DNA of 64,000 bases, from contig NC_086097.1 in NCBI RefSeq assembly GCF_963921235.1, forward strand, positions 160,706,001 to 160,770,000. The letters are read 5' to 3'. Made by a program: the position numbers and the translations under genes. The notes under the pieces were generated by a model. The model was not told where the DNA came from. It saw nothing but the letters and a program-made list of their open reading frames with translations, and did no database searches. Below, piece by piece: positions 6,311 to 47,888 of this stretch (position 1 is the stretch's first letter; each line of letters starts with the position of its first letter). The stretch is from Mobula hypostoma. Taxonomy: Eukaryota.

Positions 6311-7901
6311 TAAAGAAGGATGCTGCATCTTATAATATATCCAGATGACAAATCAGCACGTAAGAAGTCAATTTACAAACGTAAATGTACCAAAGTAGTT
6401 TAGACTGGTTCAAATTTATCCTATTGGGTGGTTTACTAATTGCATGCAGCTGCAGTTGCATATCAAAGGAAATTAATCCATAAATGAACTGTACAAAAAG
6501 GAGAATGCATTGTTAGCATGGTAAAAATTGCTAAGATTGTGCCTCGAGCCTTTTTTTGGTTCAAATGAATTGGTGGTTTGTGCAAAAATTCCAAGGTTCT
6601 TCTAGTTTTGGCGACTTCTCATCTGTCTAATTTGATAGGGAAGATGATGCAGGCGGGCTAGGAATAAGGCTAATTATTATGGAATGTGGAATAAAGTTTG
6701 CAAGCTACTGTTGTATCTGCCTGTGGAACATTGGATAATGCAATTGAAAGAATGTGTTTTTCTTGCATAAACATCTCAATTTGATCAGCACACACTGAAG
6801 AAAACGGTGGCATCTTGATTATCTCACTGGTCTAGATTGAAAGAAGATGTTAAGTATCACAATGCCAGTTTGAAAAAATGATTTATTTTTATTTTTGAGT
6901 CAGTGATGATGACCATGAAACTTGACTGGTTCATTAACACCCTTTTAAGATTAGACGTTTTCTGTTTTTGCCCTACCTAACTTGTAAATGACTTCATTCA
7001 TACAATGTGCTTACCTTATTAGTGCCTACAAATGCCTTTCAGTTTATAAATGGACTTTCTCAGGATGAATTGTGTTTTTTACCTGCCCCTTTCCAAAATA
7101 AATATTTTAATTTAGGATTTGAAATCTGCAAAAGAATTCACAATTTAACCTGTTTCAATTTGCTAGATTACTGTTAAACCTTTGAGCAACTAATTTCACT
7201 GTCATTTCTAAAGATTCATATGTTCTACATCTTCCAATTAACTCATCTACAATGTCAGAATAAAACAGTTTAACTGAAGGTTACCGGTTTGTTGAAAGAT
7301 TAAATATTAACTTAATTGCGGCTTTAATTGCACTATTAAATAGTTTTGGAATTCTAAAATTAGATTTGCCTCCTTTTTTTCATATAATGATTTCAATTGT
7401 AATGCAATTCAAAATGTACAGTATTTGTTACTTTAGGTTACAATTATTTCCAGTTTTTTTCCATCTTTAAAACTAAATTAATTGATGCTATTTGTTGCTC
7501 ATGTTTGTAGCTTTCTATTGAAAGAAAAATAATGCAGCATATTACCTTCAGAGCACACTCAAGTTTCCTTTTGCTTCCATCCCTACCTACTGCTGTGGTG
7601 GTGGAATTTTACCTGAAAAGGCACATAAGGTTGCAAACATGAATTGTAACTTTAACCACATTTTTGTACGGTTCTGAAAGTAGTAATGCTCCTTGTAGGA
7701 ACTGTTAAATGGTGCTAGTGTTATCAGTAAATAACTTGGCTCAATACGAAAACCATTGGTGTCTCTAATATTAATAATCCTACAATTTAGCCTTACAATT
7801 TTGCCAAAATGATAAACTAGGCAGCTTCATAGTTGATTGACTTCATAACACTGCTTTTAAATTTTAATAGGAAAATATGAATAGCTGCTAGATCTATGTG
7901 A

Positions 7902-10900
7902 CTTTAAACTAGAATGGTTGGGGGGTGGGAATCAAATTAAAGCGGCTAGGTGTGAGGAGGTTAGTTCACAACAGAGGGATGGGAACCAGTGCAGAGAGAC
8001 AGAGGGGTGTAAAGTGAGCGTAGAAGCAAAAACTACAAAGGGGAAAAGTAAAAGTGGCAGGCCGACAAATCCAGGGCAAGCATTAAAAAGGGCTAAGAGA
8101 GTTGTAAAAGAGTGCCTGAAGGCTTTATGTGTCAATGCAAGGAGCATTCGTAATAAGGTGGATGAATTGAAAGTGCAGATTGTTATTAATGATTATGATA
8201 TAGTTGGGATCACAGAGACATGGCTCCAGGGTGACCAGGGATGGGAGCTCAACGTTCAGGGATATTCAATATTCAGGAGGGATAGACACGAAGGAAGGGG
8301 AGGTGGGGTGGCGTTGCTGGTTAAAAAAGAGATTAACGCAATAGAAAGGAAGGACATAAGCCGGGAAGATGTGGAATCGATATGGGTAGAGCTGCGTAAC
8401 ACTAAGGGGCGGAAGACGCTGGTGGGAGTTGTGTACAGGCCACCTAACAGTAGTAGTGAGGTCGGAGATGGTATTAAACAGGAAATTAGAAATGTGTGCA
8501 ATAAAGGAACAGCAGTTATAATGGGTGACTTCAATCTACATGTAGACTGGGTGAACCAAATTGGTAAAGGTGCTGAGGAAGAGGATTTCTTGGAATGTAT
8601 GCGGGATGGTTTTTTGAACCAACATGTCGAGGAACCGACTAGAGAGCAGGCTATTCTGGACTGGGTTTTGAGCAATGAGGAAGGGTTAATTAGCGATCTT
8701 GTCGTGAGAGGCCCCTTGGGTAAGAGTGACCATAATATGGTGGAATTCTTCATTAACATGGAGAGTGACGTAGTTAATTCAGAAACAAAGGTTCTGAACT
8801 TAAAGAGGGGTAACTTTGAAGGTATGAGACATGAATTAGCTAAGATAGACTGGCAAATGACACTTCAAGGATTGACGGTGGATATGCAATGGCAGGCATT
8901 TAAAGGTTGCATGGATGAACTACAACAATTGTTCATCCCAGTTTGGCAAAAGAATAAATCAAGGAAGGTAGTGCACCCGTGGCTGACAAGAGAAATTAGG
9001 GATAGTATCAATTCCAAAGAAGTAGCATACAAATTAGCCAGAGAAAGTGGCTCACCTGAGGACTGGGAGAAATTCAGAGTTCAGCAGAGGAGGACAAAGG
9101 GCTTAATTAGGAAGGGGAAAAAAGATTATGAGAGAAAACTGGCAGAGAACATAAAAACGGACTGTAAAAGCTTTTATAGATATGTAAAAAGGAAAAGACT
9201 GATAAAGACAAATGTAGGTCCCCTGCAAACAGAAACAGGTGAATTGATTATGGGGAGCAAGGACATGGCAGACCAATTGAATAATTACTTTGGTTCTGTC
9301 TTCACTAAGGAGGACATAAATAATCTTCCAGAAATAGTAAGGGACAGAGGGTCCAGTGAGATGGAGGAACTGAGCGAAATACATGTTAGTAGGGAAGTGG
9401 TGTTAGGTAAATTGAAGGGATTGAAGGCAGATAAATCCCCAGGGCCAGATGGTCTGCATCCCAGAGTGCTTAAGGAAGTGGCCCAAGAAATAGTGGATGC
9501 ATTAGTGATAATTTTTCAAAACTCGTTAGATTCTGGACTAGTTCCTGAGGATTGGAGGGTGGCTAATGTAACCCCACTTTTTAAAAAAGGAGGGAGAGAG
9601 AAACCGGGGAATTATAGGCCGGTTAGCCTAACGTCGGTGGTGGGGAAACTGCTGGAGTCAGTTATCAAGGATGTGATAACAGCACATTTGGAAAGCGGTG
9701 AAATGATCGGACAAAGTCAGCATGGATTTGTGAAAGGAAAATCATGTCTGACGAATCTCATAGAATTTTTTGAGGATGTAACTAGTAGAATGGATAGGGG
9801 AGAACCAGTGGATGTGGTATATTTGGATTTTCAAAAGGCTTTTGACAAGGTCCCACATAGGAGATTAGTGTGCAAACTTAAAGCACACGGTATTGGGGGT
9901 AAGGTATTGGTGTGGGTGGAGAATTGGTTAGCAGACAGGAAGCAAAGAGTGGGAATAAACGGGACCTTTTCAGAATGGCAGGCGGTGACTAGTGGGGTAC
10001 CGCAAGGCTCAGTGCTGGGACCCCAGTTGTTTACAATATATATTAATGACTTGGATGAGGGAATTAAATGCAGCATCTCCAAGTTTGCGGATGACACGAA
10101 GCTGGGTGGCAGTGTTAGCAGTGAGGAGGATGCTAAGAGGATGCAGGGTGACTTGGATAGGTTGGGTGAGTGGGCAAACTCATGGCAGATGCAATTTAAT
10201 GTGGATAAATGTGAAGTTATCCACTTTGGTGGCAAAAATAGGAAAACAGATTATTATCTGAATGGTGGCCGATTAGGAAAAGGGGAGGTGCAACGAGACC
10301 TGGGTGTCATTATACACCAGTCATTGAAAGTGGGCATGCAGGTACAGCAGGCGGTGAAAAAGGCGAACGGTATGCTGGCATTTATAGCGAGAGGATTCGA
10401 GTACAGGAGCAGGGAGGTACTACTGCAGTTGTACAAGGCCTTGGTGAGACCACACCTGGAGTATTGTGTGCAGTTTTGGTCCCCTAATCTGAGGAAAGAC
10501 ATCTTTGCCATAGAGGGAGTACAAAGAAGGTTCACCAGATTGATTCCTGGGATGGCAGGTCTTTCATATGAAGAAAGACTGGATGAACTGGGCTTGTACT
10601 CGTTGGAATTTAGAAGATTGAGGGGGGATCTGATTGAAACGTATAAGATCCTAAAGGGATTGGACAGGCTAGATGCAGGAAGATTGTTCCCGATGTTGGG
10701 GAGGTCTAGAACGAGGGGTCACAGTTTGAGGATAGAGGGGAAGCCTTTTAGGACCGAGGTTAGGAAAAACTTCTTCACACAGAGAGTGGTGAATCTGTGG
10801 AATTCTCTGCCACAGCAAACTGTTGAGGCCAGTTCATTAGCTATGTTTAAAAGGAAGTTAGATATGGCCCTTGTGGCTACAGGGGTCAGGGGGTATGGAG

Positions 10901-11002
10901 GGAAGGCTGGGTTCTGAGTTGGATGATCAGCCATGATCATAATAAATGGCGGTGCAGGCTCGAAGGGCCGAATGGCCTACTCCTGCACCTATTTTCTATG
11001 TT
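7902..11002 (+). mobile_element. Young CR1 LINE, 5'-truncated at the ORF1/ORF2 junction
   Basis: Intact ORF2, CR1 3' UTR with stem-loop and (TTTCTATG)n tail. 9-bp TSD TCTATGTGA at 7893-7901 and 11003-11011. Confidence 0.95.
7903..10917 (+). CDS. CR1 ORF2: APE endonuclease + reverse transcriptase (no in-frame ATG until 8521)
   Basis: Uninterrupted ~1000-codon frame with APE motifs (NARS, ITETW, YRPP, GDFN, SDH) and RT motifs (PGPDG, YRPVSL, QHGF, DFQKAFD, GVPQGSVLGP, FADD). The track start at 7918 is TTG. Confidence 0.95.
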   Translation, partial: FKLEWLGGGNQIKAARCEEVSSQQRDGNQCRETEGCKVSVEAKTTKGKSKSGRPTNPGQALKRAKRVVKECLKALCVNARSIRNKVDELKVQIVINDYDIVGITETWLQGDQGWELNVQGYSIFRRDRHEGRGGGVALLVKKEINAIERKDISREDVESIWVELRNTKGRKTLVGVVYRPPNSSSEVGDGIKQEIRNVCNKGTAVIMGDFNLHVDWVNQIGKGAEEEDFLECMRDGFLNQHVEEPTREQAILDWVLSNEEGLISDLVVRGPLGKSDHNMVEFFINMESDVVNSETKVLNLKRGNFEGMRHELAKIDWQMTLQGLTVDMQWQAFKGCMDELQQLFIPVWQKNKSRKVVHPWLTREIRDSINSKEVAYKLARESGSPEDWEKFRVQQRRTKGLIRKGKKDYERKLAENIKTDCKSFYRYVKRKRLIKTNVGPLQTETGELIMGSKDMADQLNNYFGSVFTKEDINNLPEIVRDRGSSEMEELSEIHVSREVVLGKLKGLKADKSPGPDGLHPRVLKEVAQEIVDALVIIFQNSLDSGLVPEDWRVANVTPLFKKGGREKPGNYRPVSLTSVVGKLLESVIKDVITAHLESGEMIGQSQHGFVKGKSCLTNLIEFFEDVTSRMDRGEPVDVVYLDFQKAFDKVPHRRLVCKLKAHGIGGKVLVWVENWLADRKQRVGINGTFSEWQAVTSGVPQGSVLGPQLFTIYINDLDEGIKCSISKFADDTKLGGSVSSEEDAKRMQGDLDRLGEWANSWQMQFNVDKCEVIHFGGKNRKTDYYLNGGRLGKGEVQRDLGVIIHQSLKVGMQVQQAVKKANGMLAFIARGFEYRSREVLLQLYKALVRPHLEYCVQFWSPNLRKDIFAIEGVQRRFTRLIPGMAGLSYEERLDELGLYSLEFRRLRGDLIETYKILKGLDRLDAGRLFPMLGRSRTRGHSLRIEGKPFRTEVRKNFFTQRVVNLWNSLPQQTVEASSLAMFKRKLDMALVATGVRGYGGKAGF

Positions 11003-19920: not shown

Positions 19921-20077
19921 AACACGAGGAAATCTGCAGATGCTGGAATTTCAAGCAACACACATAAAAAATTGCTGGTAAACGCAGCAGGCCAGGCAGC
20001 ATCTATAGGAAGAAGTACAGTCGACATTTCAGGCCGAGACCCTTCACCTTGGCACCAGCAATTTTTATGTGTGTTGC
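19921..20077. mobile_element. Mini PLE insertion: terminus plus short inverted end
   Basis: Tail and HHR on minus, then inverted CACCAGCAATTTTTATGTGTGTTGC. Imperfect TSD TTACAACTCACAA/TGACAACTGACAA. Confidence 0.8.
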
Positions 20078-20556
20078 TGACAACTGACAATGTTGTACTG
20101 AGCCAAGTAAGTTAGTAATTAAATGGCTAACTAAACCCAAACACGAGGAATTCTGCAGATGCTGGAAATTCAAGCAACACACATCAAAGTTGCTGGTGAA
20201 CGCAGCAGGCCAGGCAGCATCTTTAGGAAGAGGTACAGTCGATGTTTCAGGCCGAGACCCTTTGTCAGGACTAACTGAAGAAAGGGCCAGTAAGGGATTT
20301 AAGAGGGGGAGGGGGAGATCCAAAATGATAGGAGAAGACAGGAGGGGGAGGGATGGAGCCAAGAACTGGACAGGTGATTGGCAAAAGGAGTATGAGAGGA
20401 TCATGGGACAGGAGGCCGAGGGAGAAGGAAAAGGGGGGAGGGAAGCCCAGAGGATGGGCAAGGGGTATAGTAAGAGGGACAGAGGGAGAAAAAGGAGAGA
20501 GAGAGAAAGAATGTGTGTATATAAATAACGGATGGGGTACGAGGGGGAGGTGGGGC

Positions 20557-23043: not shown

Positions 23044-24288
23044 TTTTCTCACTCTGTCCCTCTGACTATACCCCTTGCCCATTCTCTGGGTTCCCCCCGC
23101 TCCCTTTTCCTTCTCCCTGGGCCTCCTGTCCTATGATCCTCTCATACTCCTTTTGCCAATCACCTGTCCAGCTCTTGGCTGCATCCCTCCCCCTCCTGTC
23201 TTCTCCTATCATTTTGGATCTCCCCCTTCCCCCTCCCACTTTCAAATCTCTTACTAGCTCTTCCTTCAGTTAGTTCTGACGAAGGGTCTTGGCCTGAAAC
23301 ATCGACTGTACCTCTTCCTAGAGATGCTGCCTGGCCTGCTGCCTTCACCAGCAATTTTGATGTGTGTTGCTAACTAAACCTATTCTGCCTGCACAACTCA
23401 AATTCGTCCATTGTTCTCAGATTCCTGTGTCTATTTAAACATCTCTTTGAAGTTTGCCTCTACTAGTGCCCCAGGCAGTGTATTCAAGGCATTCTCCACC
23501 CTTTGTGTGTGTGTGGGGAGAAACGCAACCATCTTGCCTGTCTTGTCCCCTTTTGTAATTACCCTTATCACCTAAATGCATGTCCTCTGATATTTGAAAA
23601 TTCCAACCCTTGGAAAAAGATTTTGTCTGTCTATCTGTGCCTCCATTAATCTTATAAACCTCTGTCAGATCACCTCTCAACCTCTGCTGCTCCAGAGAAA
23701 ACAAACTAAGTTTGTCCAGCCTCTCATCATAGCACATGCCCTTTAATCCAGGCAACATATTGGTAAACCTCTTCTGCACCCTCTCCAAACCCTCGACATC
23801 CTTCAGATAATGGGGTGACCAGAACTGTATGCAATACTTACGATGTAGCCGCACTGGCGTTTCATAACTCTGCAACATAACTCCCTGACTTTTGAACTCT
23901 GTGCCTTGACTAATAAAACGAAGCATGTTGTATGCCTTCATAACTATCCTATCTATCTGTGTAACCACTTTCAAGAAGCATTGTACTATATCCCAAAATC
24001 CCTCTGCTCATCTACACTATTAAGGAACTTGTTTTTAACTGTTTACATTTGACCTATCAAGGTGCAACACTTCAAGTTTGCTGAGTTAAACTCCATTTGT
24101 CTCTGCCCATATCTGCAATTGATCTATATCCTGTTGTATTCTTTGCTGGTGATGTGGAGAGCATAGAAGGTTAGCAATCTTTGCATCATCTGCAAACTTA
24201 CTAACCTACCCATTGACATTTTCATGCAGACCACACAAACACCGGAGGTTCCAGTACAGATCCCTGGAAAACATCACTAATCACAGAA

Positions 24289-31921: not shown

Positions 31922-34900
31922 TATTATCTCTTTTTATATTTTGTGGTAGTTTATTTTCATAATCTAACTCCCCTTTCTTTATTGCTCACTTAGTGGCACT
32001 GTTGCTTATTAAAATTTTCTCAATCTTCCAGTTTCCCACTACTCTTGGCGACTTTGTATGCACAAGCTTTTAGTTTGGTGCCTTCTTTTATTTCCCTAGT
32101 TATCCAAGGCTGGCTCTCCCCAGCCTTGCAGTCCTTGCTTTTAACTGGAATATACTTCTGTCGAGCACTGAAAAATCTCTTTGAAAATCTTCCACTGTTC
32201 CTCAACTGTCCCACCATATAGCCTGTGTTCCCAATCATCAACACTAGCCAAATCCTCCCAATCCCGTTGTTGTAGTCTCCATTGTTTAGCCATAATACAC
32301 TGGTTTTAGATAGAACTATTGCACCCTCCACTTGTATGAGAAATTCAGTCATACTGTGATCACTCTTTCCAGGAGGATCCCTAACTACAACATCACTAAT
32401 TTTGCCTGTCTCATTGCACAGGGCCAGATCTAAGATAGCACGTCCCCTTTAGGTTCAGTAACATGCTGTTCAAGAAAGCCATCACGGATGCACTCTGAAG
32501 TTCTCCTCAAGACTGCCTCAACCAGCTTGATTCACCCAATCTATGTTCAAGTTAGTCCTTCATGATAATTGCTGTTCCATTCTTACATGCGTCAGATATT
32601 TCTGTGCATCTGGTCAGGGAGAGTGAGGAGGTGATAGAGAGGAGCTATAGGCAGGTAGTCACATCAGGGCCTGGTGAGACAGATAAGGGGGTAACAGTCA
32701 AGAGAGGGAAGGGCAGGAGTCAGAGGCTAGATAGCACCCCTGTGGCTGTACCCCTTGACAATAAGTACTCCTGCTTGAGTACTGTTGGGGGGAACGGCCT
32801 ACCTGGGGGAAGCAACAGTGGCTGCGCCTCTGGCACAGAGTCTAGCCCTGTGGCTCAGAAGGGTAGGGAAAGGAAGAGGACGGCAGCGGTGATAGGAGAC
32901 TCTATAGTTAGGGGGTCATACAGGAGATTCTGTGGATGCAGGAAAGAAACACGGATGGTAGTTTGCCTCTTAGGTGCCATGGTCTGGGATGCTTCTGATC
33001 ATGTCCAAGATGTCCTGAAGTGAGAAGGAGAACAGCCAGAGGTTGTGGTACATATTGGTACCAACGACATGTCGGAAAAGGGAGGAGGTCCTGAAACCAG
33101 ACTACAGGGAGTTAGGAAGGAAGTTAGGAAACAGGACCACAAAAGTAGTCATCCGGGATTACTGCCTGTGCCACATGACAGTGAGTATAAGAATAGAGTG
33201 AGGTGGAGGATAAATGCGTGGCTGAGGGATTGGAGCAGGGGGCAGGGATTCAGATTCCTGGATCATTATGACCTCTTTTGGGGCAGATGTGACCTGTAGA
33301 AAAAGGACGGGTTGTACTTGAATCCCAGGGGGACCAATATCCTGGCAGGGAGGTTTATAAGGCTACTGGGGAGAGTTTAAACTAGGATTGCTGGGGGGGT
33401 GGGCGGTGGGTGGGAACCAAACTGAAGAGATGGTTAGCTCACCAATAGAGAAAGCTTGGAGACAGTGCGAGTGGGAGGATAGGTAGGTGTTAGAGAAGGG
33501 ACATGTTCAGACCGATGGTTTCAGGGGTGTTTATTTTAATGCAAAGAGTATTATGAACAAAGCGGATGAGCTTAGAGCATGGATCGGTACTTGGAGCTAT
33601 GATGTTATGGCCATTACAGAGACTTGGATGGTTCAGGGGCAGGAGTGGTTACTTCAAGTGCCAGGCTATAGGTGTTTCAGAAAGGACAGGTAGGGAGGCA
33701 AAAGAGGTGGGGGCGTGGCACTGTTGATCAGAGATGGTGTGACAGCTGTAGAAAAGAAGGAAGACATGAAGGGATTGTCTACGGAGTCTCTGTGGGTGGA
33801 AGTTAGGAACAGGAAGGAGTCAATAAAAAGCTGTCTGTTTTTATAGACCACCCAATAGTAACAGGGACATTCAGGAGCGGGTAGGGAGACAGATTCTGGA
33901 AAGGTGGGATAATAACAGGGTTGTCGTGGTGGGAGATCTTAATTTCCCAAATATTGATTGGCATGTCCCGAGAGTGACGGGTTTAGATGTGGTGGAGTTT
34001 GTTAGGTGTGTTCAAGAAGGTTTGTCGACACAATATGTAGATAAGTCTACAAGAGGAGATGCTGTACTTCATCTGGTATTGGGAAATAAACCTGGTCAGG
34101 TGTCAGATCTGTCAGTGGGAGAGCATTTTGGAGATGGTGATCGCAACTCTATCTCCTTTACCAGAGCAATAGGAACAGACAAGTTAGGAAAGCGTTTAAT
34201 TGGAGTAAGGGAAAATATGAGGCTATTAGGCAGGAACTTGGAAGCATAAATTGGAAACAGATGTTCTCAGGAAAATGTACGGAAGAAATGTGGCAAATGT
34301 TCACGGGATATTTGCGTGGAGTTCTGCATAGGTATGTTCCAATGAGACAGGGAAAGGATGGTAGGGTACATGAACTGTGGTGTAGAAAAGCTGTTGTAAC
34401 TCTAGTCAAGAAGAAAGGAAGAGCTTACAAAAGGTTCAAAAAGCTAGGTAATGATAGAGATCTAGAAGATTATAAGGCTAGCAGGAAGGAGCTCAAGAAA
34501 GAAATCAGGAGAGCCAGAAGGGGCCATGAGAAGGCCTTGGCGAACAGGATTAAGGAAGACCCCAAGGCATTCTACAAGTATGTTAAGAGCAAGAGGATAA
34601 GACGTGAGAGAAGAGGACCAATCAAGTGTGACAGTGAAAAAGTGTGTATGGAACCGGAGGAGATAGTAGAAGTACTTAATGAATACTTTGCTTCAGTATT
34701 CACTACGGTAAAGGATCTTGGTGATTGTAGAGATGACTTATACCGGACTGAAAAGCTTGAGCATATAGACATTAAGAAAGAGGATTTGCTGGAGCTTTTG
34801 GGAAGCATCAAGTTGGATAAGTCACCAGGACCGGACAAGATGTACCACAGGCTACTGTGGGAAGCGAAGGAGGAGATTGCTGAACCTCTGGCGATGATCT

Positions 34901-35106
34901 TTGCGTCATCAATGGGGATGGGAGAGGTTCCAGAGGATTGGAGGTTTGCGGATGTTGTTCTATTATTCAAGAAAGGGAGTAGAGATAGCCCAGGAAATTA
35001 TAGACCTGTGAGCCTTACTTCAGTGGTTGGTAAGTTGATGGAGAACATCCTGAGAGGCAGGATTTATGAACATTTGGAGAAGCATAATATGATTAGGAAT
35101 AGTCAG

Positions 35107-35391
35107 GCAACACACATCAAAGTTGCTGGTGAACGCAGCAGGCCAGGCAGCATCTGTAGTGACGAAGGGTCTCGGCCTGAAACGTCGACTGCACCTCTTC
35201 CTACAGAAGTCCTGATGAAGGGTCTCGGCCTGAAACGTCGACTGCACCTCTTCCTACAGAGTCCTGACGAAGGGTCTCGGCCTGAAACGTCGACTGCACC
35301 TCTTCCTACAGATGCTGCCTGGCCTGCTGCGTTCTCCAGCAACTTTGATGTGTGTTGCTTGAATTTCCAGCATCTGCAGAATTCCTGTTGT
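35107..35391 (+). mobile_element. PLE-derived mini-element: inverted repeat enclosing three tandem HHR units
   Basis: Perfect 14-bp TSD TTAGGAATAGTCAG at 35093-35106 and 35392-35405. Inverted repeat at 35107-35159 / 35306-35358. Confidence 0.92.
35160..35311 (+). ncRNA. Tandem minimal hammerhead ribozyme array (two complete motifs, one 5'-clipped)
   Basis: GAAA boxes at 35179, 35232 and 35284. CTGATGA at 35212-35218 and CTGACGA at 35264-35270. Each unit has GAAACGTC-GACT. Confidence 0.8.
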
Positions 35392-35427
35392 TTAGGAATA
35401 GTCAGCATGGCTTTGTGAAAGGCAGGT

Positions 35428-47745: not shown

Positions 47746-47888
47746 GCATATCAAATATAGATGAGGTGTTTAATGATATAACTCACAACAAGTAATAGTT
47801 AGCATATCAAATATAAGCAAGATAGCTTAGTGATATAACTCACAACAAATAACAGTTGGCATATCAAATATAAGCAAGATTCCTTAGC
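47746..47888 (+). repeat. Tandem repeat, ~56-57-bp unit x2.5
   Basis: GCATATCAAATATA recurs at 47746, 47802 and 47859, and TGATATAACTCACAACAA occurs twice. Confidence 0.85.

Follow-up and report, generated by a model that had tools for sequence, protein, structure and literature searches.

The locus at 35107 to 35391 of the window (the whole 64,000-nucleotide stretch that was analysed) raises the question of how a 285-bp insert came to carry three head-to-tail hammerhead ribozyme units, and whether the ribozymes themselves or the reverse transcriptase (RT) that inserted them multiplied the units. The reading we favor, with a probability of roughly 0.68, is that this is a protein-less, 5′-truncated insertion of a Penelope-like element (PLE), whose three units were produced by an RT that restarted twice at the same template end during one insertion, and not by ribozyme cleavage or circles. 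This mechanism is the likely one, judging from the scars that such events leave in genomic DNA. Numbering within the element takes the first base of stem I as +0 (35260 in unit 3), and the features are as follows.

34141 to 35427, + strand: host CR1-like LINE reverse-transcriptase fragment, with an open frame from 34141, interrupted by the insert
35093 to 35106, + strand: left target-site duplication (TSD), 14 bp, in the CR1-like RT target
35107 to 35159, − strand: inverted 5′-truncated pLTR arm, +98 to +46, from the family's shorter 3′ end
35160 to 35207, + strand: unit 1, +5 to +52, hammerhead clipped before the core, predicted cut after 35186
35208 to 35259, + strand: unit 2, 0 to +51, complete minimal hammerhead motif, predicted cut after 35239
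35260 to 35358, + strand: unit 3 with the normal pLTR continuation, 0 to +98, predicted cut after 35291
35306 to 35358, + strand: right arm of the 53-bp inverted repeat, within unit 3 and its continuation
35359 to 35391, + strand: 33-nt PLE tail, lying between the family's two 3′ ends
35392 to 35405, + strand: right TSD

The initial annotation had described a perfect 14-bp TSD, a 53-bp inverted repeat with one mismatch, and three head-to-tail units followed by a 33-nt PLE tail, and all of these were borne out. Positions 35093 to 35106 are identical to 35392 to 35405 (the first two T of this duplication may also come from the element), 35107 to 35159 is complementary to 35306 to 35358 except at 35130/35335, and the units have periods of 53 and 52 with the tail at 35359 to 35391, ending near +131 to +133. 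Tandem-repeat detection placed the tandem at 35160 to 35312, with 2.9 copies of period 52 and 96% matches. Units 2 and 3 each hold a complete hammerhead motif by sequence and unit 1 is clipped, as had been observed; at 48 nt, unit 1 lacks the stem I 5′ strand and C3 and keeps the GUC and the stem I 3′ strand, and unit 2 has one private C-to-T change at 35216. In-silico removal of the insert and one TSD copy restored the reading frame of the CR1-like RT, which matched Pfam RVT_1 at E = 0.0014, below the curated cut-off. An antisense CR1-like end beginning at about 35428, some 22 bp after the right TSD, is a second insertion in the same host frame. Elsewhere in the window, a 1010-codon open frame at 7885 to 10914 on the + strand resembles a CR1-type LINE ORF.

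The insert is a genuine 5′-truncated end of a very abundant PLE. Exact matches to a family 30-mer numbered 96,911 across the 3.48-Gb genome, so that the family is at least that large, and one unit together with its 3′ part matched about 15 other places in the window. Long copies of the same terminal repeat run upstream into an ORF with an RT (YIDD), a CX4CxxC linker and a GIY-YIG domain, and the PLE origin originally proposed was thereby confirmed. The GIY-YIG part of this ORF matched PF01541 at E = 4.5e-05, the RT part had no Pfam match at E ≤ 0.01, and CX4CxxC preceded GIY-YIG in five translated copies. The order of RT, CX2-5CxxC linker and C-terminal GIY-YIG is that of endonuclease-positive (EN+) PLEs, in which this linker between RT and EN marks Neptune and Nematis (PMC8557442); as Neptune and Poseidon were the only PLEs found in vertebrates, according to the accessible text of Li et al. 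2026 (bioRxiv 10.64898/2026.07.22.740005), we infer that the parent belongs to the Neptune clade. The letters GCAC and CTACAG, shared by the three units, had been read as evidence that the units were amplified from one template, because the copies at about 4306 and 23275 in the window differ. Those two copies do carry other letters, but the shared ones are not private: the haplotype had 9,560 exact matches genome-wide, and as the mark of a subfamily it gives no sign of amplification from one template.

Insertion by target priming is in line with the TSD, the inverted arm and the tail. Published EN+ PLE insertions of the Neptune/Nematis type show partial tandems, an adjacent inverted 5′-truncated copy, a TSD, a 30- to 40-bp tail at one end, a pLTR hammerhead and two RT start sites (PMC8557442, including the legend of its fig. 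2; PMC3846280; PMC11167929). The focal insert differs from them in that its tandem is limited to the initial 52 nt of the pLTR, repeated from one fixed start, and from a full EN+ PLE in that it has no ORF sequence; in the accessible portions of the same three sources, reiterated micro-units of this kind are absent from the descriptions. The protein of an anole PLE carries out cutting and extension on both strands, has two internal start sites, one at either limit of the tail, and uses uncut RNA, ribozyme cleavage being dispensable and the ribozyme itself needing the protein (PMC11167929, as far as its accessible text goes). The left inverted arm is likely a second cDNA primed from the nick in the other strand.

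Ordinary copies were sampled as 100 consecutive family matches, a sample in which both arms of a two-armed insert are counted. An inverted arm lay within 330 bp upstream in 32 of the 100 and the tail was present in 38; an inverted arm was also found in 63 of 99 parsed tandem arrays. The hairpin is thus an ordinary inverted arm, and the view of the insert as a distinct 285-bp mobile cassette was not supported. Twenty of the 100 matches had 5′ ends at −5 to +5 (p = 3e-6 relative to flanking positions), and there was no pile-up of 5′ ends at the cut site, +29 to +34 (4 of 100, p = 0.35). A candidate ATG was seen near +165, past the tail, in one copy that has a pLTR upstream; a transcript from near +0 primed at +98 or +131 would therefore yield a cDNA of 100 to 130 nt. 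Upstream of +0 in long copies (for example L003, L011 and window positions 23250 to 23272), a branch-point-like word, a pyrimidine tract and a CAG come immediately before stem I, and there are initiator-like words at −4 and 0. In Penelope of D. virilis, an intron end also lies at helix I (PMC4209133, in its accessible part). The window contains another pair of same-strand PLE ends about 100 bp apart, at 19927 to 20045 and 20146 to 20272, with a short inverted piece between them. The near-identical downstream flanks, in opposite orientation, of two PLE copies on contig C50 of G000 (L042 at 216 kb and L043 at 364 kb) suggest a local inverted duplication.

To place the focal junctions among others, we searched the genome with two-core tandem patterns, which gave 256 matches at periods of 35 to 65 and 133 at periods of 66 to 96, many of the latter being double periods or one satellite. 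The sample consisted of the first 100 of the 256 and the first 100 of the 133; sequences were taken for 60 of 66 further loci at the shorter periods and for the first 30 at the longer ones. Of 111 arrays parsed, 97 came from these two listings; statistics were computed for 86 of them, after removal of 11 whose junctions had more than eight unmatched letters and which represent other subfamilies or complex joins. These patterns force unit starts at or before +4, unit ends at or beyond +21 and periods of 35 to 96, and the complete lack of junctions at +32 is likewise forced by the search pattern. An apparent landing fixed at +52 was rejected as an artefact of narrow patterns, since it was gone when wider ones were used. 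Tandem hammerhead arrays amounted to well under 1% of family matches, mostly with 2 to 6 units, and a TSD-like word was found in 61 of 98 arrays, 41 of the 61 words being 13 to 14 bp.

The junctions in these arrays had a narrow start and a broad end. Units started at −5 to +1 in 49 of the 86 arrays, within a full range of −59 to +4, and their ends were spread from +22 to +96. The largest group of ends, 18 arrays, was at +37/38, just past the foot of a predicted 0 to +35 hairpin (35260 to 35297 here), and dimers of 38 to 39 bp were the commonest type; ends at +51/52, as in the focal array, occurred in nine. In 80 of the 86 arrays the first unit began inside the junction start, and in only six did it extend more than 3 nt upstream of it. 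Among the 31 arrays with starts at −7 or further upstream, the 5′ end of the first unit was at most 3 nt from the junction start in 15 cases; the permuted mean was 4.8, and none of 20,000 permutations reached 15. A boundary this hard at the junction start points to repeated return to one physical end, since a rolling circle would be expected to stop anywhere. The initial annotation had offered RT slippage as an alternative origin, and slippage or jumping by the RT is the best-supported one from these fixed-start, variable-end junctions.

Comparisons among the units of single arrays were also informative. Adjacent units had the same haplotype in 52 of 59 informative arrays; by arithmetic from pooled haplotype counts, random pairs of units would mostly differ, although the subfamilies pooled in this way may not have been active at the same time. 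One base distinguishes the two focal junctions, and no derived letter is common to the focal units, a pattern that fits two separate jumps; differing junctions were seen in L078 and L100 as well. The inverted arm differed from the last unit in 12 of 59 arrays, in three of them at two or more sites, which fits the use of two RNAs per event; where they differed, the extra units followed the arm in four arrays and the last unit in three. The unit end showed no general relation to the end of the inverted arm (14 of 62 arrays with an arm end at or beyond +20). A G preceding the unit start, examined as a cap-derived mark of an RNA 5′ end, was present in 8 of 15 cases (p = 0.017) and in 22 of 55 (p = 0.31). 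Jumping onto 3′ ends is a habit of non-LTR RTs.

We propose the following sequence of events. The element's endonuclease would nick both strands about 14 bp apart, and a first cDNA would start at the tail end and run to a strong stop at +0, likely set by the 5′ end of the RNA or by the foot of the 0 to +35 hairpin; a second cDNA, started from the other nick at +98 and stopped at +46, would give the inverted arm. The polymerase would stall first at +52 and next at +51, each time returning to the fixed end at +0, before it finally reads through. The template for this cycling could be RNA or the 3′ end of the first cDNA during second-strand synthesis; we prefer the latter, given that the fixed end found in other arrays varies arbitrarily between −7 and −59.

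An alternative that we consider unlikely, although it fares best among those examined, is that a two-unit insertion came first and gained its third unit afterwards at the DNA level, through slippage or unequal exchange, with a subsequent indel of one base. Such an indel after duplication could mimic the difference between 53 and 52, a single period was found in 13 of 15 multi-unit arrays, and satellite-type growth has been proposed by Li et al. 2026 (bioRxiv 10.64898/2026.07.22.740005, in its accessible part). Derived letters were shared between units, as judged by eye, in 5 of 19 multi-unit arrays (L016, L065, L087, L155 and L165), from which we conclude that some arrays expanded or were homogenised later, and one array made of the pLTR start, L208, has grown to at least 49 units. 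The focal array, however, has differing junctions without a shared derived letter. Moreover, both of its junction types have also arisen independently at other loci (L034; L037 and L064, which are of other haplotypes), so that each is a natural product of a jump, and even on this account the first duplication still requires one jump by the RT. The array L208 itself (G000 C67, about 45.319 to 45.321 Mb) is a satellite with units of 44/45 bp that end before the cleavage site, and it closes in a normal PLE 3′ end. Six other arrays (L155, L165, L089, L198, L209 and L213) have 4 to 12 or more units with periods of 36 to 61 bp; variants alternate in L155, which suggests that this array grew later at the DNA level.

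Restarting of the RT within one insertion would account for the focal array at its birth; its later history is indicated by a sister locus. Junction 1 with its neighbouring letters occurred, with no mismatches, at exactly two loci, the focal one and one 208,350 bp upstream, and when two mismatches were allowed one further, different junction was found genome-wide. Both junctions, in the same order, and the private T of unit 2 are present in the sister (G000 C1, near 160.533 Mb), which differs at 4 of 213 letters. It starts at +26 to +29 of unit 1, its long inverted arm belongs to another haplotype, and its flanks are not those of the focal insert, with no evident TSD. Since its array is a subset of the focal one, it derives from the focal array or from a common source. 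The initial annotation had held that a junction unique in the genome would make the insert a one-off accident: the junction is not unique, as one sister shares both, but a single sister at 208 kb does not make a dispersed family. A segmental duplication was rejected as the source of the sister, because the 20 kb around it shares only repeat matches with the window. The part of the array from +26 to +29 of unit 1 through the tail would later have been copied once, over a distance of 208 kb, either by gene conversion or by an uncut transcript that was retrotransposed locally; if the template was RNA, copying ran through all three predicted cut sites.

Other pairs of arrays with the same junction lie at larger distances. 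The members of one pair on contig C12 of G000 (L179 and L180, at 66.7 and 73.1 Mb) are 6.3 Mb apart and share private letters and a junction with only two matches genome-wide; L180 is a two-armed insert with a 13-bp TSD, and L179/L207 is an internally deleted pLTR-ORF-pLTR copy. Another pair, L177 and L178, is 1.5 Mb apart, and its junction occurs again on another contig in another haplotype (L198), which makes it a weaker case of local copying since the junction arose again there. Local retrotransposition and gene conversion both fit these same-junction pairs.

The reading that drew attention to the locus, and that we now regard as improbable, is a minimal retrozyme, in which adjacent units would act as a double (circularly permuted, type III-like) hammerhead, release monomers or circles of 52 to 53 nt and spread through them. 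The identification of the motif itself as the minimal type I hammerhead of PLEs was upheld by the core boxes, stem I, the extra nucleotide before stem II and the palindromic 15.2-16.2 in units 2 and 3. It resembles the PLE hammerheads of PMC4209133, in the part of that paper accessible, in its core boxes, 4-bp stem I, extra A before stem II, loopless palindromic stem III and predicted need for a partner, and it differs from them in having a 3-bp stem II, a U at 11.1 and natural direct neighbours 16 to 17 nt apart. That U is found in all three units and in most sampled copies of the subfamily, giving G·U or A-U instead of the conserved G10.1-C11.1, and it counts against activity. An Rfam scan of the 64-kb window gave no match at E ≤ 1, which we read as a minimal motif falling under the family thresholds and not as its absence.

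Two active sites can be drawn, since the cores of units 2 and 3 are intact and unit 1 is able to give a substrate strand; in the modelled permuted hammerhead the GUC and stem I 3′ strand of unit n would pair with the core of unit n+1, with stems of 4, 3 and 4 bp. In ViennaRNA predictions, however, this active fold lay 8 kcal/mol (local) to 13 to 15 kcal/mol (in context) above the minimum, and the monomer was predicted to prefer an inactive rod over 0 to +35. The ensemble costs of the two focal junctions, 9.2 and 9.8 kcal/mol, are mid-range among 32 junctions (7.1 to 13.7); tertiary contacts and assistance by protein lie outside the model, which was run without a positive control. Dimer cleavage of PLE hammerheads was reportedly described in a 2017 paper. 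Artificial dimers and trimers of minimal hammerheads cleave at a low level (PMC4209133, accessible part), but only one of nine natural Xenopus dimers did so and eight did not (Li et al. 2026, bioRxiv 10.64898/2026.07.22.740005, accessible part), and the anole PLE manages with uncut RNA.

By composition the focal array does resemble animal non-LTR retrozymes, which are likewise tandem type I hammerhead units of PLE pLTR origin (PMC7229834; Li et al. 2026), and it fits the operational, computational definition given in the accessible text of Li et al. 2026, namely two consecutive complete motifs, in families whose consensus lengths run from 51 bp and include one from a chondrichthyan. Proven, working retrozymes are described there and in the accessible part of PMC7229834 as having canonical hammerheads, monomers of 220 to 400 nt, efficient cleavage, abundant circles and many like copies; the focal array has a minimal motif, differing junctions and a junction 1 at two loci. 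A circular template should give identical monomers, but the periods are 53 and 52, and two differing junctions cannot both have been templated by one circle. Retrozymes form dispersed families that share a monomer, and the two loci with junction 1 do not amount to one. That the array was copied once more, at the sister locus, speaks for mobility of some kind, but the sister spans all three predicted cut sites uncut. Finally, 20 of the 86 arrays end before +35 and are thus without the cleavage site or the stem I partner, and these were multi-unit as often as the others (5 of 20 versus 10 of 66, p = 0.33). With this result, the differing focal junctions and a 52-53 period that is one of many, the proposed 52-nt retrozyme was not supported. 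The structure is a known PLE insertion product and, by the definition of Li et al. 2026, in its accessible text, a short 'retrozyme' of a kind already catalogued.

Support for the trimer among assembled reads was partial: a 105-nt contig of run X1 spans 35180 to 35284 and both unit junctions, gap-free and with three other letters, and a 50-nt contig of run X2 matches 35084 to 35129 exactly (46 letters) across the left junction at a depth of 21.9, both contigs falling below the bar of 31 letters on each side applied for junction support. An assembly artefact is hardly credible: these contigs do extend fewer than 31 letters past a junction on one side, but they cross the junctions at single-copy-like depth, the sister carries the same two junctions in different flanks with its own letter differences, and many analogous arrays have TSDs of their own.

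The element itself is ordinary, and it is the surrounding census that bears on how PLE tandems and short 'retrozymes' are born. Because multimers are as frequent among arrays that lack a cleavage site as among those that have one, computed tandem hammerheads need not be ribozyme-driven replicons. A broader possibility, which we put forward tentatively and at somewhat less than even odds, is that Penelope-like RTs have a latent capacity for repeat addition, in which several returns to the same template end in one integration yield head-to-tail repeats and so seed, without ribozyme or circle, the short hammerhead arrays catalogued as animal retrozymes; the arrays would then be copied nearby on the chromosome, as in the pairs 0.2, 1.5 and 6.3 Mb apart. 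The fixed start within events and the shared haplotypes would fit repeat addition, though later DNA expansion explains part of the arrays. PLE RTs are sister to TERT (PMC8557442, accessible part), and the arrays resemble the products of telomerase and DRT2 (PMC12039810, accessible part) in being head-to-tail repeats of one bounded template segment. They differ in that their boundaries vary between events (a dedicated template would have invariant ones), their repeats number mostly two to six, and no dedicated template RNA or function is evident, as befits a by-product and not a programmed system.

In the literature that we searched, where coverage of subscription papers was thin, we found no description of reiterative synthesis by a PLE RT. 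What gives these scars their remaining interest is that they would point indirectly to such synthesis by a telomerase-related reverse transcriptase. The focal trimer, whose junctions differ and whose units have no derived letter in common, is one of the clearer cases of successive jumps within a single event. On whether PLE RTs add repeats as telomerase does, scars with a fixed start and a variable stop yield a concrete prediction that the in vitro PLE system already available could address. As a separate tandem in the window, a 57-bp AT-rich unit is present in two copies, 90% alike, at 47770 to 47887.
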